The notes under the pieces were generated by a model. That model made no database searches, had not been told where the DNA came from, and saw nothing but the letters and a program-made list of their open reading frames with translations. Both the position numbers and the translations under genes were made by a program. From Bdellovibrionota bacterium (lineage in GTDB: Bacteria > Bdellovibrionota_C > UBA2361 > JBIKWN01): a stretch of 56,388 nt of DNA. Location of the stretch: contig JBIKWN010000122.1 in NCBI GenBank assembly GCA_044356295.1, positions 1 through 56,388 on the forward strand, in the 5' to 3' direction. The first letter of the stretch is position 1; each line of letters starts with the position of its first letter. Below, piece by piece: positions 19,801 to 46,594 of the stretch.

Positions 19801-22800
19801 GCGCTATCTACACGGAGCAAACATGCGTATTAGAACTAGACAATATACGCAGATGGGATTGTTGTTACTAACGCCTGCTCTATTTATGCATACAGCTAAC
19901 GCAATATCTGCAAGTATGGGCTTTAAAGACTTCCAAGACGTATTTATTGGAGATAAGGATATAAGGCTTCCTAGTACGCAAATACTGTATGGCTTTCTAG
20001 ACTTCTTAAAGGTTTATAGTAAACACGACAGAAGACACCACTATGAGATAGCTAGAGGACTTGTAGGTCCTAATATGACTGTTAGTAATGGAGAGTTCCT
20101 TATTAATCCTGCTAGTACTACTAAAGGCGCTATTGCTGATTCACTAAGCAAACTAAATAAGACTATTATTGTTAATTCTCCTAGTACGTTTATTGGTATA
20201 GAGGTAGGAGGTATTACGGTTAGACCTGATGATCATGATGTAAGAGTTAGAGATTACTTCCAGCTACAATCTGCATCACAGGACTTCTCTTCTGCTATGT
20301 ATAGTATGTCTCCTGTCTTTGGCTTTAAGTCATTAGCAGCTAGAGGCTTTCTTCCTAACGTAATCATTGCAGAGTTAAAAGGAGTTAATGACTTTGAAAG
20401 TCTCAATTCTCATCAACTACGTAGTTTTGGAGCAGCTATTATTACTGCAGTAGCTAGTCAACCTATACGCCTATCTAAAGACAGAATTAGATTTACTGCT
20501 CCAGACAGAAGTACTCTAGAAGCAATGCAAACTAGCAAGGCACTATCCTTATCTCTTGGCACTAGATATAAAAGGCTGCAAGCATTAAGTTATGGTACAG
20601 ATACGCATATAGGTCTTTATTCTTTAATGAATAATATGCAGATAGCAGATCCAGCTATGCAGAAGACCTTTCTTAAAGCTCTACTTGAAATAGGCAATAA
20701 TGATACCTCTATTACATTGGGAGAGTTAAATCAGAATGCTTATATGGGGCGTAAGTTTAAGATTGATAAGTTGATATTTAAGGGCAAAGACAATAATCCA
20801 TTTGAACCTCTACGTCTATCAGAACAGGACAGTAACAATGAGGATGCGTTTGCTAATCAACAAGGCATAGCATTACAGCTAACTACTAATCAATATATAA
20901 ACAACAATCCTATTCATAGACTAAAGACCTTCTTTGAAGCAAATAGTCAGGTATCTGCTATACAGGGAATGCTTAATGCCTTGCCTTTTGGCTTAGGACT
21001 AATAATTACAGCAGCAACTTCTATGGGCTTAGCATTATTAGGCATTACTACTATTGCTAAGATGATTACAGACTTTGGCACTAAACATATAACTAAGGAG
21101 AATACAGCGTTATTTAAACAGGCCAGCCAATACTATGACGGAGGTAAATGGTTTAGCAATCATCCAGTTGAGGGCGTTGAGATACCAGGAGGCATCAATC
21201 CTACTACAGGAGAAAACGTACCCAGTCACTTTGTACTTAAGCGTTCAGGAGTAGTGTTCTTTACAGATACGGTACAAGAAGCAGGTCTTAGAGAATTGTA
21301 TGGAAGACAGGCTAATGCACTTAGCGCCGCATTAGCTAGTACTTTTGATATGAAGTATATGGAGTTCTACAGTGGTACTGCAGTTGATGGTTATGGCAGT
21401 AGAGGAGATGAGTATATTAAGGCAAAGCTTAGTAGAAATAATACTCCTCTAGAAAACTATAAGCAGCCTTTACCTGCTAATGATGCTAGAGGAGTATTAG
21501 AGCAGTTCTACACTGAACATGTGCAGAGTATGGAATCCTTTGATCCTTCTACACGCCCAGATCTAAACAAGCTATTAGATTCCTCTGAAGACTTTAACCT
21601 AGCTAAGAGATTACAGAGAGCTCATGCTAGTGAATTTACTCCAGTAATGCAGTATGTAGACACTGGTGTTACTCCAGAGACAGTAAAGTTTAGTAATTCT
21701 GGGGGTAGAAGATTAGCTGAGCACATGCTAGACAGCTTTACTCAGAAGCAGGTATTAGATGCGTACTTAGAGGGTCAATACTTGGCCTCATTAAAAGAAG
21801 GAGCAGGACCTGACATAGTAAGTAAACAGAACTTTATTGAGAAGTATTATAAGGGAGCTACGTACAGTGAGTTACTACAAGCAGCAGTAGAAGGAGAGCT
21901 AAGAATACCAAAGGGTGTAGAGTTACCAGAAGGCAAGTTTATTAGTCATCTAAACATCTTTGGTAAGGATAGAATGCCAAATATGTCCTACAGCATTAAC
22001 TTAATGACAGAAGTGTATGCCGCTAAGTTTGATCACATTATTGATACATATTTTGACGTAATGCAGAGTCAAGCAGATCTAATGTACGCAGAAAGTCCTA
22101 ATGCAAATCTATTTAGTGAGTATGTTGATAGGGATTTAGTTGTAGATGTGGATGGCGGTCCTTTGGGCCAAGATAGAGTTAAAAAGGTAATAGCAGATAG
22201 GCGTAACTACTACAAGGCTCATCTTAGATCTACTATTCACACTAGATTAGAAAGCACTGTATTAGCTAAGAAGCATGGTAGCTGGTTTGACAGACTAGTG
22301 GATAAAGTAGTTGGAGGTACAGTAAGAGACAATATTAATAGAATAAGCTTAGAAGCAACTAATGCAAGTATTGAAGTAATACAAGAAGTGCGTACTGGAG
22401 CAGGTAATCTGTTTAGCAGTAAAGGAGGACATCAAACGATAGAAGCACAGCTAGTAGAGGCACAGGTTGCAGCAGAGCTAGAACTAAGAACTAAGAACGC
22501 TATGGGCTTATCTGGAGATTTACCAGGAGGTGCTGGCATGGCGCAGATAAACTATAACTCTAGTAGACTATCTGCCATAGACAGTATAGAGCGTCTAGGT
22601 CATGGTATTGGCAGCCTATTTCAAATGGTACAGTTTGTAGGCATTAATCTATTAGCATTAAGAGCTGGCGCTAGTATTGCGTCTTCTAAGACAGAAGATA
22701 GAGAGAAGGAGATGGCAAGAGAAGAGCTAGCTGAGATGGCATTTAATAATATGTTTGGTGCCTTATTCTTTACCGCATTGCTATCTAGTGATGCGGTTAA

Positions 22801-24535
22801 AAGAAGCTTTATGCCTGGTGCTTTAGGCTTTGGTGCTGGTTATGCTTCTTATCAGATGTTCTTTGCAGATAAGAGCAAGAGTCCAATAGGCGCTGGTGTT
22901 GGTGTTATTGCCAGTATTACGGGTGCAACTATGCTTGCAAAGAATACCAGTAGTAAATGGGGCGCAGGCTTACTGATTATGGGTATAACTATGTTCAGTA
23001 GAGGTTTATTGGATAGCGCACCCAACATGAAGAATCTACTTGGTTCTGACGCGGTTAATAGTATTGTTTTTGGCCTAGAGGCATTTAAGGATAACAGTGT
23101 TAGGGGTATAAGAAATATACAAGACAATGCTGGTCCTATTAATGTTATAGGAGGTCTAACTGTTGCGGGTGTAGGAGCTAGTTATTTAGCAAGTGGGTAC
23201 GCATTTAAACGTACCAGTATAGGTCTTATAGCCATTGGATCAATACTAGCTGCTGCTGGCTTTATGCATTCTCTAGACAAGAGCAATACTAAAGCAGAAG
23301 TTATTAGTAAGTTGGGTCTTATGCACTTAGCTACTATTGCTGCTACTCCTGTTCTTGAAAAGGCACAGATAGCAGTGGGTAACTATGTAGGTAAGACTAT
23401 TCAAGCTACTCTAACTGAGAACATTAAGAAGAACGCAGTGGGTAAAGCGGCTGCCAATTTAACTGCTTCTATAGCTGCTAAAGTACCCTCAGTAGGATTA
23501 GCAGCCGGAGCAGCTAGATTAGCAGGAAGAGCTGCATTAGGTTTAGCTAGATTAGGTAGTGGCTTCTTCTTAGGTCCTTGGGGCTTAGGTATAACGTTAT
23601 TAAGTATTGCCGTAGAGACTGCTTTAATCCTTGCTGCTCCAGAGATGTTAGATGAGGCTACATCTAGACTTACACATCTTCCTACGCAGTTATTAGGTGA
23701 GTATGGAGGCTTTATAGTACAGCCTTCAAACACTATATACAGAGAAAAGCGCTATAAAGACATAGATCCTAAGAATGTTCTTTATTATGGTACTGCAATG
23801 GATGCTATTAAGTTAGACTGGACACAAAAGATACAGGCACTAGAAGATACTACTGGTAGACAGATGTCTGCATATAACACTTCATCTTTTGACGCGCCTC
23901 TTGTAGGCTATAGAAGTACAGGAGAAGGATATGGTCCTGGATTTCCTGATCCTCTTATGGACTTTACATTAGCGCAAAGAGGAAGACAGTACATGTCGCT
24001 AGTATTAGGTAGACAGTTCTGGAATAGTAGACTAGATGGTACCTTTAACTTTGAATTAGCTCAGAAACATATGACGCTAATGGATGATCTAATACTACAA
24101 CATTGGACTAATAGTAGAAAGAATGCAGTAGATGCAGCTACCGCTAACATGACTCAAACAAGTCAGCCTATAGTTGGCGCTAGAATTGATTCTAGTGATG
24201 CTCAGTATAAACAGTTAATAGATGAGTTAGCCTTTGCTAAGAATGCTACTAATATAGCAGCGCAGGCACAAGACATAATTAATAAGCCACATCTATTAAT
24301 TGCAACTCAGGTGCCCGCTCTACGCATTAATCATGATCAAACACTGCTAGTTGGTAAGGTTACACAGGCCGCTCTTAGAAGCTATAGAAGTAAGGATGCT
24401 ACTACAGGAAAGGCATCTGTAGAAGTAGCAGTATCTGTTGCTCCTAGCGCAGAAGTAACTGCCACTGAACACTTTAGAGTAACTCAAGGTAATAATACGG
24501 TTGAATCTTTTATTGTGCAGCCTCTCATTACCTAG
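13868..24535 (+). CDS. Giant (3555 aa) tape-measure-like/ejected virion protein with N-terminal DNA/RNA non-specific endonuclease domain
   Basis: Ala/Gly-rich helical protein with many hydrophobic segments. Around aa 130-350 it carries NucA-family motifs 'YVVSYN...PNWV', 'RENDFRPD', 'GFDMGH', 'TYLMSNM', 'NQGPWASLE', 'VPKILWKV'. Confidence 0.7.
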   Translation: MINLLSVGTTVLTVGVAALGAKHLADDALSWRRKDGWDWQYKGNSIHDRVGNFVLGGDPKSRYNNYLRNYNEVIGYGYKMPSIELVPPPSQSIAPIAGARNYGLDNTGLSPVLTQIGNLTGATREDANNLLLVRKQENVGGYVVSYNSDKGRPNWVAFKIDKNSLGSVRRENDFRPDYEVHKPVSPSTFPSGFDMGHAANSAAFTANKTLNSLTYLMSNMYAEAPALNQGPWASLEIYLNNKVSPSIINGAGPLNNNSMYVITGGSGTGGVGSKGYIESQGGVEVPKILWKVAIFVPNGMDLKEAVNSQQAKALAVAMPNMQNVNPNWQRHVVTDLDQLRRLTGVQRFVPTISEEQERKLLSDAGLLPNPENKAKILNIDINDIGPNFRSDAANKARSRGIHNPLFYPLFDTDKSLKGFVLSNKNSYSESFEMARYNASMRNTGRFNSVVDVEDMNTFELILRADKGDLTEHELRTARMYDRAVNSPSLSTRINEFVFLPINMGRVYKEEKGFIPSLFGAVGGLIDQAYLVNNPALIKSYKKDGENYFATKQTFFQDLLENSAAGLIASVSSVATYLAVGEPIKAMISQSILSAQESVINASKMNVFAKVASGGSIYNTPFLAEVMQFKRDQPATAFYSANNPTLSLYWFENYARIRGATFFEATAREFLLNKISPYKIDSKDGKYKQLLGAINDYTQALASPADIVITKMDGEITVNTHSENIWQREQITVNGETINLETALARLQRNAEVNGTLVTQEVKQAITDQLHNKYQLKIVNVSLERNMDLAQKLQKILNLVPMPWHWGMFTGPKEVFNGPMIGNLVDIEGFTRYINAAVNNQGFWGAANEFMVYHSGDKTKAHAPAYRILNHMATMTRALLAFNDRGGQSQRELAGIKRIAETYVEEEQKILSNKKQPLHTETGYTVIDNSIDPDTGAVRVTDDELAKLLANEAHYQNNWKSQGESLNKIKLGSHYHYVNKTRGTNNLGFILNTIDRNGTYMGMKIASTKISAAKWIIGGIFIPHLLAKEFIEKSGLSLGGTALAHSILNTTSTNTTIQTHSTNLFSYTDVARYMGATGATESAIGVVETLVNAGGLAVWAYNNSAFTPETHARLYTLDRLVNTVSEYAVDVDAAGNKVFQAVPKTEAEFIKALAGKEEIALKLKTGQEVGMVVAREASLLPGTEGKVRGLHTLHTRISKNMTSFGISLALSLAAMQTARYVVSSVIDADRQMFGSSFAGFWLLGVPSILLGAATTIDNAAHLLKVVGGGFSAKPLNVNYWLTSQLTKKVVLPALQGYATLLGRSGTSAAVTLGLTAAALFVGYVNRWTPIQGDVNGPKLDAVNSNAVLKLAAYNQHIQAKVAMYRQIGKDGNESISDSVSPLEVNAALLSIALHKMMAPTGPEVKGSTAYIVAIQSPTPIFQYYSVIKRVVDKTGNSYATVGLGIQGPPILGIAPINFTLPIAYALNSSRNAIQIRTGYMGTGLILNEHNKDGVNIADIFNMYSQVALWSKLGLWVSKPLISNVMYRSQYQMLATPAVGAELPLVQGLRAGRTKFLDVGRVGFEIAAQSARLMTADLRAPGYRLTRSSIGPAAINAVIAGGLTYYLLSVLNAAGAYDKDANKEPDFSFNNAINSMDKTALAGGVAIAWGVKDYVRNTLIEARVLSQLERDILIASTDAKFDKAKVDFISQKLYSNPHSSKWLRTAGRISDTAFERLSVFKGDKLNMRKLGLMRAGGMLAAGALWTHFITDPKSGLVNPELAYGDLRQIKDGTHENLYDGFRRNTHIAINALFLGVGLSTLTRFTAATVFFSPLDPEVIFAEYKYKLEAVAQLRDKVSSQSAKSSKGLNRVVDGAVTAIRKMQLSFATMRLEQVGTEVQILLEEARHADPKISSITKDMHKALGGQDPRDNVKHKVAEGANRVMVDLQQKGDTTLGTDINSIARTTNHQIVKQSLDSLGDPTIVDDARQTANRSALLKSMRYLHGANMRIRTRQYTQMGLLLLTPALFMHTANAISASMGFKDFQDVFIGDKDIRLPSTQILYGFLDFLKVYSKHDRRHHYEIARGLVGPNMTVSNGEFLINPASTTKGAIADSLSKLNKTIIVNSPSTFIGIEVGGITVRPDDHDVRVRDYFQLQSASQDFSSAMYSMSPVFGFKSLAARGFLPNVIIAELKGVNDFESLNSHQLRSFGAAIITAVASQPIRLSKDRIRFTAPDRSTLEAMQTSKALSLSLGTRYKRLQALSYGTDTHIGLYSLMNNMQIADPAMQKTFLKALLEIGNNDTSITLGELNQNAYMGRKFKIDKLIFKGKDNNPFEPLRLSEQDSNNEDAFANQQGIALQLTTNQYINNNPIHRLKTFFEANSQVSAIQGMLNALPFGLGLIITAATSMGLALLGITTIAKMITDFGTKHITKENTALFKQASQYYDGGKWFSNHPVEGVEIPGGINPTTGENVPSHFVLKRSGVVFFTDTVQEAGLRELYGRQANALSAALASTFDMKYMEFYSGTAVDGYGSRGDEYIKAKLSRNNTPLENYKQPLPANDARGVLEQFYTEHVQSMESFDPSTRPDLNKLLDSSEDFNLAKRLQRAHASEFTPVMQYVDTGVTPETVKFSNSGGRRLAEHMLDSFTQKQVLDAYLEGQYLASLKEGAGPDIVSKQNFIEKYYKGATYSELLQAAVEGELRIPKGVELPEGKFISHLNIFGKDRMPNMSYSINLMTEVYAAKFDHIIDTYFDVMQSQADLMYAESPNANLFSEYVDRDLVVDVDGGPLGQDRVKKVIADRRNYYKAHLRSTIHTRLESTVLAKKHGSWFDRLVDKVVGGTVRDNINRISLEATNASIEVIQEVRTGAGNLFSSKGGHQTIEAQLVEAQVAAELELRTKNAMGLSGDLPGGAGMAQINYNSSRLSAIDSIERLGHGIGSLFQMVQFVGINLLALRAGASIASSKTEDREKEMAREELAEMAFNNMFGALFFTALLSSDAVKRSFMPGALGFGAGYASYQMFFADKSKSPIGAGVGVIASITGATMLAKNTSSKWGAGLLIMGITMFSRGLLDSAPNMKNLLGSDAVNSIVFGLEAFKDNSVRGIRNIQDNAGPINVIGGLTVAGVGASYLASGYAFKRTSIGLIAIGSILAAAGFMHSLDKSNTKAEVISKLGLMHLATIAATPVLEKAQIAVGNYVGKTIQATLTENIKKNAVGKAAANLTASIAAKVPSVGLAAGAARLAGRAALGLARLGSGFFLGPWGLGITLLSIAVETALILAAPEMLDEATSRLTHLPTQLLGEYGGFIVQPSNTIYREKRYKDIDPKNVLYYGTAMDAIKLDWTQKIQALEDTTGRQMSAYNTSSFDAPLVGYRSTGEGYGPGFPDPLMDFTLAQRGRQYMSLVLGRQFWNSRLDGTFNFELAQKHMTLMDDLILQHWTNSRKNAVDAATANMTQTSQPIVGARIDSSDAQYKQLIDELAFAKNATNIAAQAQDIINKPHLLIATQVPALRINHDQTLLVGKVTQAALRSYRSKDATTGKASVEVAVSVAPSAEVTATEHFRVTQGNNTVESFIVQPLIT
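14250..14915 (+). other. NucA/Serratia-type (Endonuclease_NS, His-Me finger) domain within the giant protein
   Basis: DMGH at 14447-14458 (canonical DRGH), with the downstream metal-binding Asn and Glu in 'LNQGPWASLE'. Boundaries are approximate. Confidence 0.85.
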
Positions 24536-36508: not shown

Positions 36509-36775
36509 TCATTCATTAGCGCCTTGAAGTGAGTATTTATGCAGCTCATAGAAAGCAACAGCTTCTTTATTTCTGCCATTATTAAGGAGATCTAACAGGG
36601 CAGTAGTTACTTCAACGTATCTTGTTGATTTAAGTTCAACAGTACGATATGCGGATGCAACATTAAGTCTTAGTACGTGATATGCAAAGTCTTTAGTACC
36701 TTCTATGCTTACGTAGCGCGTCAATTTATTAACTAGGAAGTTAATTGTATCAAGCATCTTCTTTTTAATCTGCAT
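36509..36775 (-). CDS. Hypothetical protein
   Basis: 88-aa ORF coupled to the upstream gene. Confidence 0.55.
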   Translation of the reverse strand: MQIKKKMLDTINFLVNKLTRYVSIEGTKDFAYHVLRLNVASAYRTVELKSTRYVEVTTALLDLLNNGRNKEAVAFYELHKYSLQGANE

Positions 36776-37085
36776 TATTAATTCTCTGTTTAAGTTTATT
36801 TATTAAATCTGATCCGCATCTAGTAAATAAGGTATTAATAAGCTTATCTTCCATAATACTTTTAAGCATTAGTAGTTGTTTATCTGACAAGTTCTCCTCT
36901 ACATTAAACCAATAACTTAGGACAGACTCACTAACAAAACCTCTAGAACGTCTAGATTGAAGTGAAAGCTTGAAGTAATCATTAAGCTCAATAATTAGAG
37001 ATAGGAGCTCCACTCCTTCATCAGTGCATATATCTACAATGCTTTGTAGATATTCAGCAGTAATTAACTTATTATTAGTAGGCAT
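36765..37085 (-). CDS. Hypothetical protein
   Basis: 106-aa ORF overlapping the HNH gene end. Confidence 0.55.
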   Translation of the reverse strand: MPTNNKLITAEYLQSIVDICTDEGVELLSLIIELNDYFKLSLQSRRSRGFVSESVLSYWFNVEENLSDKQLLMLKSIMEDKLINTLFTRCGSDLINKLKQRINNAD

Positions 37086-37674
37086 AGTCTTTATTGATTA
37101 CATCCAACTTAGTACAGACTTTAAATGCCCAACTCATTACAGACTTAAAGACAGTAGTAATACTATTAACGTACTGCAGGCCTGAGAATTTAAATGTAGC
37201 CACAATAGACCTAGCAACAATATTAAGAATAAACTTCAACCAATTAGCAATCTTATTGCCCTTTGTATTAAAGACAGTTCTAGCGCCCTTATATTTTTTA
37301 AACACTTTAATATTAAACGTACATGCTCTTCTTTGAAACTTAGTAACAAGCACATGATCATCTGGAGACAGATAGACTAAGTTACTAGGAGTATTATTAT
37401 GAGTATTACCATCTACATGATGCACTTCCACATCAGCGCCACTAAAGCGCATTTTATTTTTACCAACAAATAGAAAGGCAATAATTTGATGATAGTAGAC
37501 CAACTTTCTACTTCTATTAGAGAAGTGCCAGTAACCCGTTTCTTCTAGCAAGGACTTAATAGCACTATTACATGGTCTAGTAACATCAAAGCACTTATAT
37601 GAATGAGGAAATCTACCTACAACAAAGTAGGAGCTATTATCCAGTAATTCCTTTATATCGCAATAGTTATACAT
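37075..37674 (-). CDS. HNH endonuclease
   Basis: 'YHQIIAFLF...EVHHVDGNTHNNTPSNLVYLSPDDH'; GAGAGG RBS upstream. Confidence 0.88.
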   Translation of the reverse strand: MYNYCDIKELLDNSSYFVVGRFPHSYKCFDVTRPCNSAIKSLLEETGYWHFSNRSRKLVYYHQIIAFLFVGKNKMRFSGADVEVHHVDGNTHNNTPSNLVYLSPDDHVLVTKFQRRACTFNIKVFKKYKGARTVFNTKGNKIANWLKFILNIVARSIVATFKFSGLQYVNSITTVFKSVMSWAFKVCTKLDVINKDYAY

Positions 37675-37690
37675 AACACAAACCTCTCAA

Positions 37691-38075
37691 CAAATACTAA
37701 TAAACAACAAACACAAAACAAATAACTACTCTCTGTTGACCCAGGCCCAAAACCTAGAGGAGAGTAGTTATTTGACTGTATTTGATTAGACACTCTAATC
37801 CCTTGTGTTTTATTTAGTATCTCCCTAATAGGAGCCCCAGAGTTCCAGGATTACACTTATTAACGCCGATGTATGTAACATCTTTCTAAGAGTCAGCACG
37901 TATGCCCACAAAGACTCTTAATTTACTATTCTACTTAAAGTAGAGGCAATTATAAGGAGCTGGCTGGGGTCGGGGTGTTATGAAGAAGCTTTACTCTCTT
38001 CTACTAGTTTGCTAGTTTGGAGTGCTTCGTCTTACTAATGTAAGCGTCCTGCCCTGTTACTCATTATTATAACAC
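37691..38075. ncRNA. Unclassified highly structured non-coding element (candidate ncRNA or structured DNA)
   Basis: Largest ORF-free gap, with about 10 stems, e.g. 37719-33/37760-74 (15 bp), 37784-90/37794-800, 37835-40/37964-69, 37887-94/37913-20, 37930-35/37939-44, 37975-83/38067-75, 37985-89/38024-28, 38003-07/38012-16, 38031-35/38040-44. Confidence 0.55.
38066..38074 (-). promoter_or_regulatory. Candidate extended -10 promoter (TGnTATAAT)
   Basis: The minus strand reads TGT-TATAAT just after the upstream gene stop; no -35 match. Confidence 0.35.
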
Positions 38076-38078
38076 ACA

Positions 38079-38432
38079 TTATTTGTTTTCCCTTTCTTTT
38101 TTTAAAAGGGCCCAATCCCGCAGAGTATAAGTTGTTTCTTCTACGTCTGCATTACTAACTGTAGTAATATTGCAGCTTGTTACCGCATCTTCTACGTGTA
38201 CTCCTATTTCTTCCAGCACTGCAATCAAATAATCAATCTTGTTAAGTCCTGTATATTTCCATTCTGCAGCTACGAGCTGCTGTTCAATAGGATTAGCACT
38301 GTACCAATCATTATCAGCAATAGGCTGGCCATCATACAGCAGTTCAATATTAGTTAAGTCCGTCTTAAGTAAATTCTTTCTAGCCACATACAGAGCCAGT
38401 ACATCCTTTAAATCTATCTGCTGTCTGCTCAT
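38079..38432 (-). CDS. Hypothetical protein
   Basis: 117-aa ORF with ATG start. Confidence 0.55.
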   Translation of the reverse strand: MSRQQIDLKDVLALYVARKNLLKTDLTNIELLYDGQPIADNDWYSANPIEQQLVAAEWKYTGLNKIDYLIAVLEEIGVHVEDAVTSCNITTVSNADVEETTYTLRDWALLKKERENK

Positions 38433-38484
38433 ATATTGTTTACGCCTATTTTTTTAACTGCTTATCCGTATTTACTACATAAAA

Positions 38485-38517
38485 AATGCACCTAGGTCTT
38501 TTCCATCTAGGTGCATT
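38485..38517 (-). terminator. Intrinsic terminator downstream of tRNA
   Basis: AATGCACCTAG (38485-95) / CTAGGTGCATT (38507-17), followed by a T-run on the minus strand. Confidence 0.75.
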
Positions 38518-38569
38518 ATTTTTTCTGTATCCCATCATAGGAGCTTAATTGATTCTACACATTAACTTG

Positions 38570-38647
38570 TGGTGCGGATGGTAGGACTCTAACCTACGAC
38601 TTCCTGTCCCCAAAACAGGCGCTCTAAACAAACTGAGCTACACCCAC
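38570..38647 (-). tRNA. tRNA-Pro(UGG) with encoded CCA
   Basis: Cloverleaf GTGGGTG-TA-GCTC-AGTTTGTTTA-GAGC-G-CCTGT-TT TGG GG-ACAGG-AAGTC-GTAGG-TTAGAGT-CCTAC-CATCCGC-ACCA. Confidence 0.92.
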
Positions 38648-38691
38648 ATAACACATGTAACTGTAGAGGGGGCTACTTACGTAGGGATGAT

Positions 38692-38946
38692 TTATATATC
38701 TTCTACATTTACATGCTCTTCTATATTATATAACACATTTAATTGTTTTGCGCAAGCAGTATGAGCATCTTTCATTGTAGGAAAGGGGCCCTCTTGATAC
38801 ATTAGACCTCCAAAGAATATGGTGTAGTAGTATTGTTTATTTCCCAGTCTATGTACATGCTGATAATAAGACTGTTGAGGACTAAGCTTAGTAGTCAGAT
38901 GACTATTGCCTGGAGATATATTGTTAATTGGATACGTAGTCAGCAT
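38692..38946 (-). CDS. Hypothetical protein
   Basis: 84-aa ORF in the operon. Confidence 0.45.
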   Translation of the reverse strand: MLTTYPINNISPGNSHLTTKLSPQQSYYQHVHRLGNKQYYYTIFFGGLMYQEGPFPTMKDAHTACAKQLNVLYNIEEHVNVEDI

Positions 38947-39020: not shown

Positions 39021-39433
39021 TTGCTTCTTAGTTGTAGCAGTTGATTAAGCATATTTAATGCGGCTATGTTGTCTTCTAAGTCTACATAGACTGCATTGTC
39101 ATCTTCTTCAATCTTTAGATATAAAAGTCTTCTTCCATCTGTAGGATGTGTTGTATTTAAAGGAACAGCTTCATATAGCGATGAAGATACTTTAAATGTT
39201 CTACTGAAGGTACAACTACAAGTACTATCCATAATTCGCACTATTAGATAGTGTCCTGTAGCATCAGAGTACTTTTCAACTACTGTCGCATTACCTGTTA
39301 GTATTGGCTTTTTAGATTGAAGATAAAAGCTTTGCTTGCTTGATAAGGGGGTTGAATTAACTGCAGTAGAAGTACAGTAAAAAGATACAAATAGAAGAAG
39401 AGGTAATACTGTATTAACAAGTTTTATATACAT
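39017..39433 (-). CDS. Hypothetical exported/membrane protein
   Basis: N-terminal hydrophobic signal-like segment 'LVNTVLPLLLFVSFYC'. Confidence 0.5.
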   Translation of the reverse strand: MYIKLVNTVLPLLLFVSFYCTSTAVNSTPLSSKQSFYLQSKKPILTGNATVVEKYSDATGHYLIVRIMDSTCSCTFSRTFKVSSSLYEAVPLNTTHPTDGRRLLYLKIEEDDNAVYVDLEDNIAALNMLNQLLQLRSK

Positions 39434-40062
39434 GAGTTATTAGATGTGTTGGATAGTACGTTGTCGTGATTAGACTGCCACGTAGTATTAGCAAAGCCTA
39501 ATCTCTTGCAGTAGTGTCTAAACTCTGCCGAAGTCCATTTACTTAACACGTTAAGCAGTTCAATTTGCTGTTCATACATAGGGCGCTTAATGTCTACAAT
39601 AGCACTAACATCTGTCCACTTAACAAAGGCAGACTCAGTTATTCTAATCCAAGCTTCAAACACACACCACTTAGCACTTACTAAATCTCCGCCAGGTAAG
39701 TAGAACTCTGTAGGCTCCAGATCCTTTTCTAGTTCTGCAATTCTAGTAAACAGTCTATTAATAACGTTAGCCGTATTAATAGTGTATGTAGCGTGCTTAG
39801 GTGTAAATATCATAGCTCCAATGTTATTGCAGCAGTGTTGTATATCAGTAAGAGTAATATACTCAACAGAGTCCTTAAGATAATTAATCTTTAGTTCTCC
39901 TGCTAAAGCGCTAATCATCTGTACATAGCCTTGTACCTGAACACTAATATGTCCTTTAGATAGGCTTATAGAAAGGCCATCTTCTCCATTATGAGCATGA
40001 GTTTGTCCTTTGCTGCCCCTACCAATAATTGCGCCAGGAACAATTCTGTTATTCTTAGTCAT
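39424..40062 (-). CDS. Hypothetical protein
   Basis: 212-aa ORF. Confidence 0.55.
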   Translation of the reverse strand: MTKNNRIVPGAIIGRGSKGQTHAHNGEDGLSISLSKGHISVQVQGYVQMISALAGELKINYLKDSVEYITLTDIQHCCNNIGAMIFTPKHATYTINTANVINRLFTRIAELEKDLEPTEFYLPGGDLVSAKWCVFEAWIRITESAFVKWTDVSAIVDIKRPMYEQQIELLNVLSKWTSAEFRHYCKRLGFANTTWQSNHDNVLSNTSNNSCI

Positions 40063-40954: not shown

Positions 40955-43900
40955 TTACTTCTTAGATGGTAGAATTTGGCACATGTCTTTCTCACATGCA
41001 ACACTACCTCTATCATCTTCAAAGTCACTATTAGTGTAATACTTTCTAATTGCGTCATAGAATGTATCTATCTTTCTTCTGGTATGCATATCTGCTACCT
41101 GCTGTTCATACTCAGACTTACTAATAGGTTCAAAGGGCAGTCTAGGGAAGTTTGCATAAGAGTCAAAGCGACTTAGTAACGCTGTACTTACATAGTCCGT
41201 ATTATGTTGAATTGCTTGATAGATGCTTTCACTTAGTTCTTCAATCTCTTCTTGTCTCAGTTCAATAGTACTACTTACATTATGTTGTGAGTAGTGTTCT
41301 TGTACCTGCATAAAGAAATCAAACTGTGCCTTAGCACTAAACTTACTAATGTCTACATCAATCTCATCAGCAAACGCCGCCCAATTAACTTCTACGGGAA
41401 TCTCTACTAACCATTCAGTGCATCTAGGATCATGAGGATCATTTAACAGCTTACCATTCTCATCCGTATCTGATTGAGCAGGTACAACTGAATAGCCAAA
41501 ATCTAGACACGCTAATGCAATAGGATCATCCTTAGCAAAAGTAATACGTCTAATGTAGCGCTGAGCTTTAGGTAGATGATAGCCACAACTAGCACCCGTC
41601 AGTAGACTCTTGGTGTTGTGAGATTTAATAGCGCCCTGCCAATACCAGGAGTCATTATCATCTTTACCATCTACGGCATAATCATATGTATAATCCGTTG
41701 TTTCTTCTATCTTACTAATCATATAAGGTAGATCATCTACAACTAATTCTACATCTTTAGTACTCATATACTGGTAGAGCTCATTAACTGAGGGCTCATA
41801 AGACTTGTTGACATTTAATTTAAGTTCATATCCGCCTGCATTTATTTTGAATGGATACTTACTAGCTTCTATAGTATGTAGACTAAAGCATAGTCCTACT
41901 GCTTCTGCTACCTGCTGTACATTAACTGCCAGATTCTTATTAGTATGTGAATGACGTTCTAAGTATCCAGCAATAAAGGCCAGTATTGAACTCTTAGAAG
42001 AAGTTCTAACTGCTTTAGGTATATAGTCATCCGTCTTTTCATTAACTATTAAGTGGTTTAACTGTAGCCAATCTTTTAAGGCTGCAATAGCGGCAGGCGT
42101 TGCACTTGTCTTTAGCTCTCCAAATACACTTCTATACAAATTAGTTGCTCTATCTCCTCCACTTATATTGCGAATAGCATTAATAATAACCTCCTCTTCA
42201 GTGCCTGCTTTAGAAGAAGTTATATTTAGTCCTATACCCAATAGATAAGCCAATTCTGGCGACATTGTAGTGGGTAAAGTTAATGACTTAGAAGAAGGTA
42301 TAAGAGATGCTTCTTGTTCATTTTTATAAGTATATAACTTATAATCAATCTGCTGACCGACCTGCATATCCTTAGCCATAATCCAATTACCAGAAATGCT
42401 TAGTCTATGATTAGGCGTCATAGTTATTTGACGTCCATTATTAAGAGTAATACGCACTAACTGCATTAGATTATTAGCAATACCAGAAGTTACAGCAATC
42501 CCATCTCTTACGGTTAACTGTTGTTGCTCTAAATTGTATTCTCCTCCATTAGCTTCCATATGTTCATGTGCCATAAGAATACCCTTATCAAACACACGTA
42601 CTGCTTCTTTAGTAAGGCACCCGGCTGGTTGAACGGTAGTAATTCTATTAGGTATTCTCAAGCCATTGCGTTCACAATAAGTAGCTACTGCCTTTACAGC
42701 TACATCTCTCCAGTGAGATAAGTACCACTTTTCCATCTCACTAAACATAGCGCTTGTAATACTTGTAGCGCCTTGCATAAGCTTACTCTTATATGAATTA
42801 ACAATAACCATTAATTCACTAGGAAAGGCTAAAGTAAACAGTCTAGAGTTGATGTTAATAATGTCACTATCTAAGCTTCTGCCTTCTTTCCACCATAACA
42901 GCCACTCAGCACCAAACGCATTAACGAAGAAGTCAAATAGACCTGTAAAGGATACTCCTACAATAGGATCAATCTCTCTGCTGTATCTAAACTTCTCATC
43001 ATCAAATGTATGCTGCAGTAGTGACGCAGTAATAAGTCCACCAGCCTCAAACGCTTCATCCTGCTCTCTAATGTTAAAAGGATCTAACTGATTAAGATGC
43101 ACTTCACTTAAGTTGCAGTTACCAGTTAACGTATTACCAAAGACCGCCTTATGATTAAATGGCTCCTCAAAACAGTAAGTGTCATATAGTCCTTCTAACT
43201 CTGTAATGGATAGAATAAAAGCATCCTGCTCTCTATTATTAACACACACAGGACGGGTTAGTATCTGTGTAGGCAGTTCTGCATAACTATTAAAGGCTAC
43301 GTATGCAGTATTTAGTCCGCCTACACTAATAGAGGACTTAATTCCTACCTTAGTCAGTAGTAACTGCACTATTCTTGCCAGCTCTTCTCCAGCCACTTTA
43401 ATGCGCATGACATTAGAGAGATTATTTGTAGGATCTCCGTCAATAAGTCCTGCAATTAGATAAAGTACTGCCTGTCTAGACCAGCTAAATGGCTTTAGAC
43501 TTGCCAATAGATTATCCAAGTAGTTCTTATTAATGCCTGTATCTATACCTCTATCCGTCTTAACACCTAACAACTCTGGACTGTTTAAAAGAGTATTAAC
43601 CGTATTATTAGTAATTACTGCTGACACAGTTGATAGGGCCATTAAGGAACCACTTGTCTCTTGTATATTAGATGCAGTATAACCATTACTTAATGCATAG
43701 CCACAAGTGTATGCAAAGTCATAAGGTACTTCTTCACCTTCTTCTGTATTAATAGTAAAAGGCTCAGTAAACAGCTTATACTTACTAAAGCTTAATAAGT
43801 CTTTAGTTGGCAGCTTACTGTACTCCGCTTGAAATCTAGTCTTTACATAGAAGTTATGATTCTCTGTTACATCTAAGTAAGAACCATCATTGAACTGAAC

Positions 43901-46594
43901 TCTGTACAGCTTTCTATTGCTGCCCGTCTTAATGGGAGTAACTGTAGACCATCTATCTCCATTCCATACTTCAATAGGCACGCCTACTACGTCTTTAATC
44001 TTAACTAAGTTGTTACGGGTAATGATGGGAGTATTACCATCAACACACATGAAGTTACTACCTAAAATCTCATAACAAGGATTGGCTCTCCATCTATCTA
44101 CTCTGTGTTGTAGCTCTTTATCTGTTAGATTAGGATTTAGTTCCTTCAAGTATCTCTTAGCAGCTTCAATGTCTGCTAGATACAGATCATGAAATAAGTC
44201 TTTCTTCTTCTTAGTGTTAAGCAGATCCGCATTACATCTAATAACGGCAGTAGGTGCATAACCAATTGCGCCTTCTCCAGAGAAGAACTGTTTAGTTACT
44301 GCTTCTACTACTTCCTGTTTAGAGGGCTTAGTTTGATACATGCGAGTATGATTAGCCATACGCAGACAATTCTTTTCTGGATCAATGCTCCAATTACCAT
44401 CTTTGTCTACTGTCCAGAGATTATCCTTTAGTCCACCAAATACTACATCGTCACTAGAGCCCTGCATTAATTCTGCACTGTTATGAGTTAGATAACCATC
44501 ACAATAGAAGCAGTGAGCTTCTTCTACTTCAATATCATACGTCTGAATAGAGTTGTATGATCCTAAAGCTTTAAAGGTTACAGGAATATCTAGATCAAGT
44601 TCTTGATGTGTTAGAAGGCGTTCATATGTGCAATTAGCTGCTTTATCCGTACTAAACCCCATAGATTTAATCTGGTTATATGTGTAGCTATTGCGCATCA
44701 TGTCACCAGTAAATGTAAAGCTCTCATTCTTTGTAGCTTCTTTAATAAAGCCTTTAGCAGAATGAGGAGCAATAAGAGTATTAAATCTGTTCTTGAATGC
44801 AGGTAGAGTTACAAGATGTTTAATCTGCCAAGAAGTGTTTGTAGAAGATACCAGCTTTACTCTAGTTACAATACCAAGACTAGACATTAGTACAGATATT
44901 TGATCTGCAAAGTTTTTGTATACAGTGCATACAAGTTGTACAGGTCGTGTTCTTAGGCTACCATCACTATCAAATAAACCTGCTAAGTATGCAGAACGCA
45001 CATCAATAGTACTTTGTAGGATAAAAGTTGGAACCTCTAAAGGTACGTTGGGCTGCTTAATATGTTGATAAAAGTATTCAGCTAAGCGAACTGAGCTGCA
45101 GACTGATCTAAGTGTGTTTTCTTTATTACAGACAGTATGTCTAGCCTTTAGACCAAATGCATTCAAAGCGCGATCAATCTTTTCACACAAAACCTTAGAC
45201 AGTTCTAGTTCTGAGGAGTTCATTGACCAGCTAACAGAACCATAAGGCTTATCATACTTATTACGTCCTAAAGCTACATAGCCATTACCATGAGTAAATC
45301 CAATTAACCACGCAACTTCAGGAGTTAATGTGGGAATAGTAATAGACTTTGCAGTGTGACTATAATTAGGACGCTTCTTAGTATTGTCTAAGGGTAACTC
45401 TGTAGTTGTTCCAGAAAGAATCTTGTTTGTGTGTACCAATCTATCATTTTCTGATAAGTCACATACCTTCTTCCATTGTATAGAACCAGAAGCATCAGTA
45501 AATACTGCAACGCGATGATTTAAAGTTGCACGAGGGTTACCAGCATTAGTTTCAAGCTCATAAACGTCTTGTACACCTTGATCAAACTTATTTAAGACTT
45601 TTCTAAATCCCAAAGGAGTCTGAACCAGGTCACCAATCTGTACATCTTTAATTGCAACTAGTCCCTTAGATGTGTGTACTAACGCATCTTCAGGAAGACA
45701 TCTACGTACATTGCCCGCTACTGTTGCTTTAGCTTCTACGCCATAAAGCCATGCAGCTAAGAAGGAGTCCCATTCTCTACCTACATACTTATTACACATG
45801 TTTACCGTATCTTTAAATAGATTAGGTAAATCCTTTGGATTAGCAACGCCACCAAATCCCTTAATAGGTGTGCCCTTTTTACGAGGATTAGTTAGATCAA
45901 CAGTTAAGTCTACATGGTAGTTAATGTCTACCTTATCTGCTCTATTCCCATCTACGTACAAAGCATATTGATTGTTCTTATTATTTCTAACAGGATTAAC
46001 AGTGTTAGTAAATACGTTTAACAGAGCTAAGAAGCCTGTAGTCCAGCCCTCTCTAGTGTCTGCTACTGTAATACTTACTTGTTTCTGCTTAGTGTTAACA
46101 CGTACTTCAGTGGTTTGTAGCGGAAACACAGCACTACCAATCATGTGATCTGGAGTAATGTCTACTAACTTTACATTATTAACCATCTTTGGTAGTTTAC
46201 TAAGCTCTTCTGTTGTAATAGAAGCGCCTACTCCACATCCCTGCATCAAGAAGTTAAAAGCTCTAGCAATATCTTCTAGCTCTTCTGTCTTCATACCAAT
46301 ACAGTTATATGCCGCATAATAGTTCTTTGGCTTATCTAAGAACTCCATGCCTCCAACCCACAGCCATCTACCAGACATTAGAGTCTTTAGACTATATAGC
46401 TTCTCTCTAATAAGCTGCTGTTCTTTTGTAGTGTAATTGCCTAGTTTAAATAGGCCTCTTAAGCATCTTTCAAAGACTTCATTTACGCTCTCCTTTGTTA
46501 CGGAGCTGTCAATTCTACTTCTACTATACGTTCTATAGAAGGTGGGATCTCCCGTATTAGCAGGAAATACTACAGATACGTTATTGTCTAACAT
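40955..46594 (-). CDS. nrdJ: Class II (adenosylcobalamin-dependent) ribonucleotide reductase with three inteins; mature protein about 827 aa
   Basis: 'FYRTYSR', 'SGRWLWVGG', 'AYNC', 'MQGCGVG', 'VAGNVRR|SA', 'NPCYE...|CNLSEVHL', 'TTVQPAG|TKSLL', C-terminal 'CEKDMC'. Confidence 0.95.
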   Translation of the reverse strand: MLDNNVSVVFPANTGDPTFYRTYSRSRIDSSVTKESVNEVFERCLRGLFKLGNYTTKEQQLIREKLYSLKTLMSGRWLWVGGMEFLDKPKNYYAAYNCIGMKTEELEDIARAFNFLMQGCGVGASITTEELSKLPKMVNNVKLVDITPDHMIGSAVFPLQTTEVRVNTKQKQVSITVADTREGWTTGFLALLNVFTNTVNPVRNNKNNQYALYVDGNRADKVDINYHVDLTVDLTNPRKKGTPIKGFGGVANPKDLPNLFKDTVNMCNKYVGREWDSFLAAWLYGVEAKATVAGNVRRCLPEDALVHTSKGLVAIKDVQIGDLVQTPLGFRKVLNKFDQGVQDVYELETNAGNPRATLNHRVAVFTDASGSIQWKKVCDLSENDRLVHTNKILSGTTTELPLDNTKKRPNYSHTAKSITIPTLTPEVAWLIGFTHGNGYVALGRNKYDKPYGSVSWSMNSSELELSKVLCEKIDRALNAFGLKARHTVCNKENTLRSVCSSVRLAEYFYQHIKQPNVPLEVPTFILQSTIDVRSAYLAGLFDSDGSLRTRPVQLVCTVYKNFADQISVLMSSLGIVTRVKLVSSTNTSWQIKHLVTLPAFKNRFNTLIAPHSAKGFIKEATKNESFTFTGDMMRNSYTYNQIKSMGFSTDKAANCTYERLLTHQELDLDIPVTFKALGSYNSIQTYDIEVEEAHCFYCDGYLTHNSAELMQGSSDDVVFGGLKDNLWTVDKDGNWSIDPEKNCLRMANHTRMYQTKPSKQEVVEAVTKQFFSGEGAIGYAPTAVIRCNADLLNTKKKKDLFHDLYLADIEAAKRYLKELNPNLTDKELQHRVDRWRANPCYEILGSNFMCVDGNTPIITRNNLVKIKDVVGVPIEVWNGDRWSTVTPIKTGSNRKLYRVQFNDGSYLDVTENHNFYVKTRFQAEYSKLPTKDLLSFSKYKLFTEPFTINTEEGEEVPYDFAYTCGYALSNGYTASNIQETSGSLMALSTVSAVITNNTVNTLLNSPELLGVKTDRGIDTGINKNYLDNLLASLKPFSWSRQAVLYLIAGLIDGDPTNNLSNVMRIKVAGEELARIVQLLLTKVGIKSSISVGGLNTAYVAFNSYAELPTQILTRPVCVNNREQDAFILSITELEGLYDTYCFEEPFNHKAVFGNTLTGNCNLSEVHLNQLDPFNIREQDEAFEAGGLITASLLQHTFDDEKFRYSREIDPIVGVSFTGLFDFFVNAFGAEWLLWWKEGRSLDSDIININSRLFTLAFPSELMVIVNSYKSKLMQGATSITSAMFSEMEKWYLSHWRDVAVKAVATYCERNGLRIPNRITTVQPAGCLTKEAVRVFDKGILMAHEHMEANGGEYNLEQQQLTVRDGIAVTSGIANNLMQLVRITLNNGRQITMTPNHRLSISGNWIMAKDMQVGQQIDYKLYTYKNEQEASLIPSSKSLTLPTTMSPELAYLLGIGLNITSSKAGTEEEVIINAIRNISGGDRATNLYRSVFGELKTSATPAAIAALKDWLQLNHLIVNEKTDDYIPKAVRTSSKSSILAFIAGYLERHSHTNKNLAVNVQQVAEAVGLCFSLHTIEASKYPFKINAGGYELKLNVNKSYEPSVNELYQYMSTKDVELVVDDLPYMISKIEETTDYTYDYAVDGKDDNDSWYWQGAIKSHNTKSLLTGASCGYHLPKAQRYIRRITFAKDDPIALACLDFGYSVVPAQSDTDENGKLLNDPHDPRCTEWLVEIPVEVNWAAFADEIDVDISKFSAKAQFDFFMQVQEHYSQHNVSSTIELRQEEIEELSESIYQAIQHNTDYVSTALLSRFDSYANFPRLPFEPISKSEYEQQVADMHTRRKIDTFYDAIRKYYTNSDFEDDRGSVACEKDMCQILPSKK
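41615..42619 (-). mobile_element. NrdJ intein 3 (335 aa), degenerate endonuclease
   Basis: CLTKEAV...'MTPNHRL'...IKSHN|Thr; 'LAYLLG' and 'AFIAGYLE' remnants lack the catalytic DG. Confidence 0.9.
43118..44047 (-). mobile_element. NrdJ intein 2 (310 aa), penultimate Gly, partly degenerate LAGLIDADG
   Basis: CVDGNTPII...'VTENHNF'...TLTGN|Cys; 'LIAGLIDGD'. Confidence 0.9.
44480..45700 (-). mobile_element. NrdJ intein 1 (407 aa) with LAGLIDADG homing endonuclease
   Basis: CLPEDALVHT...YLTHN|Ser; 'AWLIGFTHGNG' and 'AYLAGLFDSDGS'. Confidence 0.92.

Follow-up and report, generated by a model that had tools for sequence, protein, structure and literature searches.

An expressed, structured RNA gene upstream of a putative I-HmuI-type HNH endonuclease gene on a phage-like freshwater contig

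Introduction

Does the longest gene-free stretch of a phage-like contig encode an RNA, and if so, how is that RNA connected with the nuclease gene that follows it? The question is raised by positions 37675-38078 (404 nucleotides (nt)) of contig JBIKWN010000122.1, which was analysed over its full length of 56,388 nt and is called the window below; this gap is the window's longest stretch without an open reading frame (ORF) of at least 60 amino acids (aa) on either strand. It lies directly upstream of a minus-strand gene for a 199-aa HNH nuclease, and a preliminary description of the locus, made from the DNA letters, had put the two forward as a candidate RNA-nuclease system, naming an antitoxin or attenuator RNA and a structured replication origin as further options. 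We find that the gap is the gene for a real, expressed, structured non-coding RNA (ncRNA) that lies outside all Rfam families and is linked to the HNH family. This RNA is at least ~290 nt long, or ~350 nt if it runs to the U-rich tract in front of the HNH gene; its placement on the minus (HNH-sense) strand, its ends, its termination and any interplay with the protein are what we infer from the evidence set out below. A literature search, mostly of titles and the openings of abstracts, turned up no report of an RNA associated with this HNH family.

Results

An expressed, structured RNA in the ORF-free gap

The gap had been singled out for its length, and rightly so, the second-longest ORF-free stretch of the window being 234 nt and containing the gene for tRNA-Pro. 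The minus strand of the gap folds with a minimum free energy of -118.5 kcal/mol (z -3.92, equalled by 0 of 100 shuffles) and the plus strand with -104 kcal/mol (z -2.94, equalled by 1 of 100), so that the proposed folding held up against shuffled controls; many inverted repeats run across the region. In Rfam 15, tRNA was the sole family to reach its gathering score in the whole window; within 37000-38700, searched at E-values up to 10, the best match in the gap was LhrC (21.7 bits against a gathering score of 110), and nine related loci searched at E-values up to 1 gave nothing but one tRNA, in keeping with the earlier suspicion that no known family is present. An ARAGORN scan reported tRNA-Pro alone, and the match to similar DNA in GenBank phages was confined to the tRNA. 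No second copy was found in the metagenome-assembled genome (MAG) to which the contig belongs or in the records of the related loci L008, L009 and L010. A role as CsrA sponge was considered and rejected, four GGA triplets per ~290 nt (counted manually) being about the number expected by chance.

Environmental sequencing runs show the gap as RNA. The region 36700-38700 was represented by 94-100% of sampled words in 14 DNA runs, and was nearly whole (0.94-0.97 of words) in eight DNA runs from eight studies that carry no possible-source flag; in six metatranscriptome runs it was represented by 12-21%. Contig mapping covered four of these six runs, from four studies, and took in 1.6 kb of flanking coding DNA. 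All four yielded gap contigs without a mismatch, every one within 37776-38067: a 289-nt contig at 37779-38067 (run X15, depth 81.9), and contigs at 37776-37991 (X17, depth 147.3), 37802-38025 (X18, depth 6.4) and 37780-38048 (X19, depth 6.5). All mapped RNA contigs fall on either the gap or the tRNA-Pro region (38511-38700); the HNH, 106-aa and 117-aa ORFs received none in the four runs, which says nothing on transcription of the HNH gene. Because these flanks were mapped in the same way and got no contig, DNA carry-over does not explain the cover of the gap.

Three of the four gap contigs end at 37776-37780, just 5' of the long terminal hairpin (Table 1), which is a weak hint of a processed RNA end. 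The tRNA contigs also end at or before a terminator hairpin (38511-38533, against a hairpin at 38485-38517), so that the ends of the gap contigs can be read just as well as a sign that 3'-terminal hairpins are under-represented. That second hairpin, which follows tRNA-Pro, has 13 bp and is flanked by A-runs and, at its opposite side, by T-runs, the shape of a bidirectional terminator; this tRNA region (38485-38517 and 38570-38647) was covered by RNA contigs of three studies.

A homologous RNA in a related phage

Relatives of the locus (given L numbers) were found with HNH alignments as queries in IMG/VR and metagenomes; the window HNH protein as a single query had no match in IMG/VR, and a scan of GTDB genomes gave four loci that match the HNH core alone. 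The closest distinct relative, the L008 type (also L009 and L043; contigs of 108-196 kb), has an HNH protein 55% identical to that of the window, preceded by a 539-nt ORF-free stretch visibly homologous to our gap. Blocks common to both are the start TGTGyTATAAT, GACCCCAGCCAGCyCCUUAUA, AAGUGUrAUCCUGGA..CUCUGGGGC and ACAAGGGAUUA. The two are syntenic for HNH, thymidylate kinase, a photolyase-like gene and a phrog_1735 gene (31-55% amino-acid identity), and no similarity is detectable between the small ORFs beside the two cassettes (E 0.3); judged by these sequences, the head-to-tail cassette appears to be retained in a lineage of large freshwater phages whose neighbouring small genes have diverged beyond recognition. 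At the nucleotide level the RNAs of the two are 59% identical overall, with 71% for the junction domain and 50% for the 5' domain; the HNH genes stand at 65% and two genes of the neighbourhood at 54-57%.

The junction domain carries the clearest structural signal. Its closing helices are stacked (CCCCAG/CUGGGG, CCAG/CUGG, CUCCUUAU/AUAAGUG and UGCC/GGCG) and enclose three hairpins, with a fourth hairpin following. RNAalifold on the two sequences gave 40 pairs, of which 29 are invariant, four changed on one side, seven changed on both sides and none broken; 3 of 500 column shuffles reach the observed values, and sliding the partners by 1-3 columns left at most one double change and 34-49% pairing. 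The covariance model built on it, R1, scores 191 bits in the window junction and 190 bits in that of L008. A four-way junction and a GGAUUA-UrAUCC tertiary pairing are proposed. Unpaired stretches are invariant or strongly conserved in this comparison, and a fifth hairpin forms in each phage from sequences that bear no relation to one another (GAUGU..ACAUC in the window against ACUAG..CUAGU in L008).

Of the three domains originally drawn for the gap, the first was found as described, with both its 15-bp perfect stem, which is the lower stem of the terminal hairpin (37719-37733 with 37760-37774), and a GATTAGA/TCTAATC hairpin. The top of that terminal hairpin (26 nt) bears a conserved inner stem CUAGG..CCUGG and UCAACAG; in L008 the stem sequence is different and the top CCUCUAGGU..GGGCCUGGGUCAACAGA the same, in L010 the top is conserved in part, and the hairpin form is kept in the window, L008 and L010 with differing stems and a conserved UYAACAG bulge. 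The inner helix covaries (CUAGG/CCUGG against CCUCC/GGGGG), the automatic alignment being shifted there and its counts not clean. The second domain stood in its CCCCAG/CTGGGG closure and three hairpins, all conserved in L008, and fell in its other closure, AGTTCC/GGAGCT, in place of which the comparison supports CCAG/CUGG and CUCCUUAU/AUAAGUG. The closure GTGTTATGA/TTATAACAC given for the third overlaps the promoter-like TGTTATAAT, and it is not counted here as RNA structure because no equivalent was found by eye in L008.

The signals at the two ends of the unit recur in its relatives. The promoter-like TGTTATAAT directly follows the stop codon of the 117-aa ORF, and both this extended -10 and the stem with U-tract are present as previously reported; the ORF-free stretches of L008, L012 and L045 all have the 11-mer TGTGCTATAAT at their start, from which the window, L011 and L047 depart in 1-2 letters. 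The 5' motif GUAACAGGGC has the counterparts AUAACAAGGC in L008, GUAACAGGCG in L045 and GUAACGAGCG in L011, and could equally be read as a DNA-level operator. By eye, motif ACACAAGGGAUUA corresponds to AGACAAGGG in L008, L011 and L026 and to AGACAGGGG in L045.

Two further identities between the window and L008 lie inside the HNH ORF, namely a 35-nt run at 37329-37363 and a 20-nt run near codons 29-35; with proteins 55% identical, such runs imply that synonymous sites are frozen there, which could reflect a nucleotide-level element or recent gene conversion.

The HNH protein

The 199-aa ORF matches Pfam HNH_3 with 26.5 bits (cut-off 24.8), its other Pfam match, RecA_dep_nuc, being sub-threshold; PHROGs places it in HNH endonuclease families, NCBIfam gave no family, and PADLOC returned just weak generic HNH and homing-endonuclease matches. 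An exhaustive search gave 184 cluster representatives at E-values up to 0.001 (49 at up to 1e-10), and most homologs are ~200 aa long and align over their full length, including the C-terminal part that the preliminary description had pointed out and that is indeed conserved across the family. All of 34 family members have H86 and N98, and at least 90% of them have H85, N94 and H107.

The profile of these 34 members had a sole match in the PDB, to 1u3e, which is I-HmuI (E 8.9e-5). An AlphaFold2 (AF2) model (pLDDT, the predicted local distance difference test, 87.6) agreed: I-HmuI was the only one of 48,161 chains with Z of at least 5 (Z 6.1, root-mean-square deviation 3.4 Å over 86 residues), and residues 1-116 of the model superpose on its DNA-binding N-terminal and catalytic parts, the model having both the N-terminal DNA-binding sheet and the beta-beta-alpha-metal core of the I-HmuI-type fold. 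Foldseek against the PDB gave no match at E-values up to 0.001 and taken alone was not significant (E 0.83). The family has in addition a conserved C-terminal helical extension that is not in the aligned part of I-HmuI. Pfam searches found no RuvC, bridge helix or PLMP domain in the 199-aa protein, as had been anticipated for RuvC. The protein is thus of the I-HmuI type and not an IscB, most likely a small homing endonuclease that nicks DNA, and its superposition on the DNA-binding part of I-HmuI implies that it has its own DNA recognition.

Linkage of upstream RNAs to the HNH family

The architecture was counted over 11 distinct loci with a full-length HNH family member. A stretch of 397-909 nt free of same-strand ORFs precedes the HNH gene in 8 of the 11, so that an upstream element does recur among HNH homologs as the preliminary description had proposed to look for; a TGnTAnWWT motif lies 207-556 nt upstream of the gene in eight loci, and nine have a hairpin with a T-rich tail within 140 nt of its ATG. 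These promoter-type and hairpin/T-tract signals are all in the HNH sense. The minus-strand reading of the -10 and terminator-like stem fits every related locus, and the plus-strand reading once kept open for the gap RNA is not supported. The RNA is linked with the HNH family across diverged phages, and its expression was seen in four studies.

MAFFT gave no usable common RNA alignment across all HNH subfamilies, in which two short motifs can be followed by eye, one close to the 5' end (UAACARGSS) and one close to the 3' part (AGACARGGG); the upstream stretches of L045 and L011 have blocks in common. An exact 16-mer from the hairpin top occurs in 11 IMG/VR loci, two of them real L008-type loci and nine chance matches in coding DNA, and a combined promoter and 5'-motif pattern hit 13 loci, of which the three L008-type ones alone are real. 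On the rest of the MAG, the second match of R1 (E 0.136) was not significant.

Close variants are available for the L012-type phages. Six L012-type RNA variants differ in 19 scattered columns, and no guide-like hypervariable segment, for which a search had been suggested, was seen among them. Their paired columns show 2-3 double changes, four single changes kept through G-U and one disruptive change; four of the five clean single-sided changes keep pairing only through G-U on the sense strand (a mixed pair at columns 2/443 was set aside). The L012-type cassette adjoins a phrog_1735 homolog and is found intact, interrupted by insertion sequences (ISs) or deleted, so the unit is accessory, like homing endonuclease genes. 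In L238 the HNH gene has been deleted along with most of the RNA, the one clean cassette deletion seen. IS200/605-type and IS607-like insertions in the cassette were found in L013, L017, L022-L025, L235-L237, L243 and L245, and in L231, L232, L240 and L247; insertion sequences are unusual in phage genomes. L228, which has a phrog_1735 relative and no HNH gene nearby, was tried as an 'empty site' and rejected, having no other gene in common with the window.

Several other loci of the search deserve mention. L152, L154 and L159 (~1000-1370) carry a second, more distant HNH paralog of the L012-type phages, in front of which a ~560-nt stretch contains the motif TGGTATAAT and a module, CCCGGCCUCCGAUGGAGGGGGG, that occurs three times, every copy lying within a longer inverted repeat. 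In L011 (3001-3483) the HNH homolog is split into ORFs of 75 and 71 aa, either as a decayed copy or through another genetic code, and the upstream stretch still resembles that of L045. An unrelated viral contig, L132, which the promoter pattern had brought up, has a G+C-rich, strongly paired element of ~130 nt (~1601-1760) between a promoter and the next ORF, to which R1 gave no match.

Genomic setting

The window comprises the entire contig C55 of a 2.96-Mb MAG and has ~36% G+C. Its content is phage-like, with a terminase, a class II ribonucleotide reductase with inteins, thymidylate synthase, dUTPase, primase, helicases and a 3555-aa ORF. Membership in the MAG may be a binning artefact or a host link, a question that arises because the same stretch was found in lake and freshwater DNA runs of many studies. 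The cassette lies inside a replication and nucleotide-metabolism module, and the local gene order, all on the minus strand, is tRNA-Pro, 117-aa ORF, gap, HNH ORF and 106-aa ORF (Table 1), with tRNA-Pro 500 nt upstream of the gap RNA unit. The two flanking small proteins are orphans, each with a single 96%-identical relative and none in IMG/VR. Elsewhere in the window, the ribonucleotide reductase ORF (40955-46594; 1879 aa) carries intein and LAGLIDADG homing-endonuclease domains and adjoins a cobalamin adenosyltransferase-like gene (39424-40062) and an RNA ligase-like gene, and the 3555-aa ORF (13868-24535) has as its sole Pfam match an N-terminal DNA/RNA non-specific endonuclease domain.

Table 1. 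Features of the cassette and of its immediate surroundings in the window.
Feature	Position	Strand	Basis or remark
tRNA-Pro(TGG) gene	38570-38647	-	most upstream of the local minus-strand gene series
117-aa ORF	38079-38432	-	own stop at 38079; directly upstream of the gap
Extended -10-like promoter motif TGTTATAAT (TGTGTTATAAT with 5' flank)	38066-38074	-	read from sequence
ncRNA body, at least 289 nt	37779-38067	- (inferred)	metatranscriptome contigs
5' motif GUAACAGGGC	38051-38060	-	kept near the 5' end in L008, L045 and L011
Junction domain	37819-37982	-	two-sequence comparison and covariance model R1
Motif ACACAAGGGAUUA	37796-37808	-	by eye, without statistic
Long terminal hairpin	37719-37774	-	inverted-repeat listing and fold
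U-rich tract UUUUGUGUUUGUUGUUUAU	37700-37718	-	sequence and crude hairpin-plus-T scan
Shine-Dalgarno-like GAGAGG	37683-37688	-	8 nt before the HNH ATG; read from sequence
Putative 199-aa I-HmuI-type HNH endonuclease gene	37075-37674	-	Pfam, PHROGs, profile, structure model
106-aa ORF	own ATG at 37085	-	11-nt overlap with the HNH gene end

Discussion

A cassette of RNA gene, terminator-like hairpin and HNH gene

We read the locus as a single cassette made up of a structured ncRNA gene, a terminator-like hairpin and a free-standing HNH gene, an anatomy to which we assign a probability of roughly 0.85; that the RNA is also functionally tied to the HNH gene, rather than merely adjacent to it, is a more tentative proposition, at roughly 0.45. 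Judged by the family-wide linkage and the co-divergence of the two parts, the RNA probably controls or partners the nuclease. The cassette would then be a free-standing homing-endonuclease element that carries its own RNA component. A strong promoter would produce the RNA, which would start at or just after the extended -10-type motif abutting the stop codon of the upstream gene and would end at, or be cut just before, the hairpin and U-tract, which lie 45 nt before the HNH start codon. The hairpin and U-tract would halt most transcripts and HNH mRNA would come from read-through only, so that nuclease expression would, as we propose, stay low; the released, stable RNA might in turn act on the nuclease or on the HNH mRNA as a regulator, inhibitor or cofactor. 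By analogy, an I-HmuI-like protein fits a homing endonuclease that needs restrained expression.

A number of observations weigh against this reading. With regard to the transcript, the RNA contigs are strandless and lack true ends. The region has about as many promoter-like sites as chance would give (9 against 9.3 expected), and a simple consensus scan listed neither the promoter motif nor the terminator, the hairpin and U-tract being absent from the terminator list on account of a loop longer than 8 nt and a stem poor in G-C pairs. One RNA contig reaches 38067, which lies inside the -10 hexamer and 7-8 nt upstream of the start expected from TGTTATAAT. With regard to conservation, there are just two distinct sequences of the window-type RNA, that of the window (identical to L042) and the L008 type, and the junction structure was derived from the same two sequences used for the counts; the RNA is conserved, yet not dramatically above the HNH gene or the neighbouring genes, and covariation in the L012 type is weak to moderate (22 of 500 shuffles reach its score). 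R1 gave four matches on 45 sources at E-values up to 10 (the window, L008 and L145, which is the same record as L008, are real, and an extra window match is due to chance, E 2.6) and none on 19 further sources; none fell in other HNH subfamilies, so common ancestry of the RNAs rests on the architecture and the two motifs recognized by eye. As for the tie to the protein, contact between RNA and protein would be a supposition. In L012-type phages an IS200/605-type element (TnpA and TnpB) sits inside the RNA with the HNH ORF intact, and at four loci an IS607-like element (serine recombinase and TnpB) replaces the 5' half of the HNH gene and part or all of the RNA; the phage needs neither RNA nor HNH, and the HNH gene can persist for a while without an intact RNA.

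Comparison with known systems

I-HmuI (PDB 1u3e), an HNH nicking homing endonuclease of Bacillus phage SPO1 encoded inside a group I intron of the DNA polymerase gene, is the best and only clear match to the window protein and resembles it in being small, phage-borne and equipped with an HNH_3-type motif. In contrast to I-HmuI, the window gene is free-standing between small ORFs, has a non-intron RNA in front of it, and encodes a different C-terminal helical part.

As selfish nuclease genes between phage genes, the free-standing homing genes of the T4 type (segB, mobE, seg43(25)) resemble the cassette in placement. PMC2988022 describes RNA hairpins and promoter placement that limit translation of T4 homing endonucleases, including, for seg43(25), a stable hairpin that lies shortly before the ribosome binding site and leaves it uncovered. 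Whereas those elements are single hairpins of tens of nt, the window has a multi-domain RNA of 290-350 nt with its own promoter, compensatory changes and a presence in environmental RNA. A DNA operator is described for I-TevI in the same paper (PMC2988022), and the UAACARGSS motif could equally be one. Candidate structures within 25 bp upstream of HNH_3/HNHc viral genes are listed in table mmc8 of PMC10690425 (for example DNAVirus_1632, _2711 and _6591), with no function or expression given there; going by names and domain counts, the window RNA may or may not be among them.

The order promoter, RNA, terminator and nuclease ORF is also that of type III toxin-antitoxin loci such as ToxIN. There the terminator sets the RNA-to-nuclease ratio and the antitoxin consists of tandem repeats processed by the endoribonuclease toxin. 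The window differs in that its protein is a DNA-type HNH and its RNA is without such repeats, the direct repeats within 37600-38150 being just 8-22 nt long and two-copy.

Alternative explanations

The strongest competitor, which we nevertheless think unlikely, is an independent phage small-RNA gene with a trans-acting or structural role of its own, comparable to the stable RNAs and tRNAs that phage tRNA regions encode or to large ornate phage-associated RNAs, beside which a selfish HNH gene has parked, targeting it or hitchhiking. The unit resembles a self-contained gene from promoter to terminator, with RNA contigs of four studies between its two motifs (neither of which, as noted, the consensus scan listed), and the HNH gene is dispensable and decaying in L012-type phages, as selfish homing genes do. 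The position of tRNA-Pro 500 nt upstream also recalls T4, whose SegB gene is located among tRNA genes and whose product targets that tRNA gene region (PMC2988022). However, no copy of the RNA without HNH was found by the 16-mer scan of IMG/VR or by R1 on the loci searched, the divergence of the upstream RNAs from one HNH subfamily to another roughly equals that of the proteins, a pattern of co-divergence, and the sole natural deletion seen (L238) takes HNH and most of the RNA together.

Improbable as we consider it, a minimal ribonucleoprotein (RNP) nuclease would have the RNA bind the HNH protein and either direct it to targets or keep it inactive until release. Were this so, large freshwater phages would have an RNA-dependent HNH system independent of IscB and Cas9, with each HNH subfamily carrying its own co-evolving RNA. 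The narrower version, in which the RNA is scaffold or guide of a small HNH protein, an analog of the IscB-omega RNA (HEARO) on an I-HmuI-type protein, seems to us a little less probable again. It draws on the structured RNA of ~300 nt that lies right in front of an HNH-bearing ORF and in the same orientation, as in HEARO, on the multi-helix junction with invariant unpaired stretches, on the conserved C-terminal helical extension beyond the aligned part of I-HmuI, and on the 5' domain being the most variable part of the RNA (50% identity). IscB, though, has 400-500 aa with RuvC, a bridge helix and PLMP, and rides on IS200/605 elements, whereas the window protein has 199 aa and HNH only, its RNA has no Rfam HEARO match, its residues 1-116 superpose on I-HmuI (Z 6.1) in a manner that gives it its own DNA recognition, and the six L012-type variants have no guide-like hypervariable segment; the kinship to HEARO/OMEGA systems mooted at the outset is accordingly not borne out.

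We regard as very unlikely a relic or derivative of a self-splicing or self-cleaving RNA, either a decayed group I intron or a ribozyme that makes the 5' end of the HNH mRNA by cutting just 5' of the terminal hairpin, as the lariat-capping ribozyme of twin-ribozyme introns makes the 5' end of an endonuclease mRNA. I-HmuI is itself intron-encoded, the unpaired segments are strongly conserved, and the contig ends directly 5' of the hairpin would suit such a cut as a weak hint; the tRNA contigs, however, also stop at a terminator hairpin, so that the stop may be technical. There was no match to Intron_gpI or GIR1 at E-values up to 10 in the window and up to 1 in nine related loci (the Rfam Intron_gpI model misses some group I subgroups), a P7-like helix could not be paired by eye, and the flanking ORFs are complete in themselves (Table 1) and unrelated between loci, leaving no exons to join; the earlier remark that an intron core is not to be seen agrees with this. 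A DNA-level element, that is, a replication origin (as the preliminary description had allowed) or recombination hot spot of hairpin DNA with the HNH protein as nickase, is suggested by the many inverted repeats, the adjoining nicking-type HNH and the replication and nucleotide-metabolism module, and is scarcely credible given that the cumulative GC skew changes direction at ~26 kb, together with a flip in gene orientation, and shows no turn near 37.7 kb, that the stretch is present as RNA, and that G-U pairing accommodates single-sided substitutions on just one of the two strands.

Significance

Large, conserved, highly structured RNAs without a known job are, to our knowledge, rare, and several such RNAs have proved to be ribozymes, machines of RNA and protein or assemblies of RNA alone. 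The candidate described here stands out through direct environmental expression data and a fixed protein neighbour, within a cassette of ~1 kb. If the RNA is independent of the nuclease, it would still be a new, abundant RNA of lake phages on which a homing endonuclease has settled. If it controls or partners the HNH protein, the cassette would represent a new way of taming or aiming selfish nucleases and might provide a very small RNA-linked DNA-nicking enzyme.

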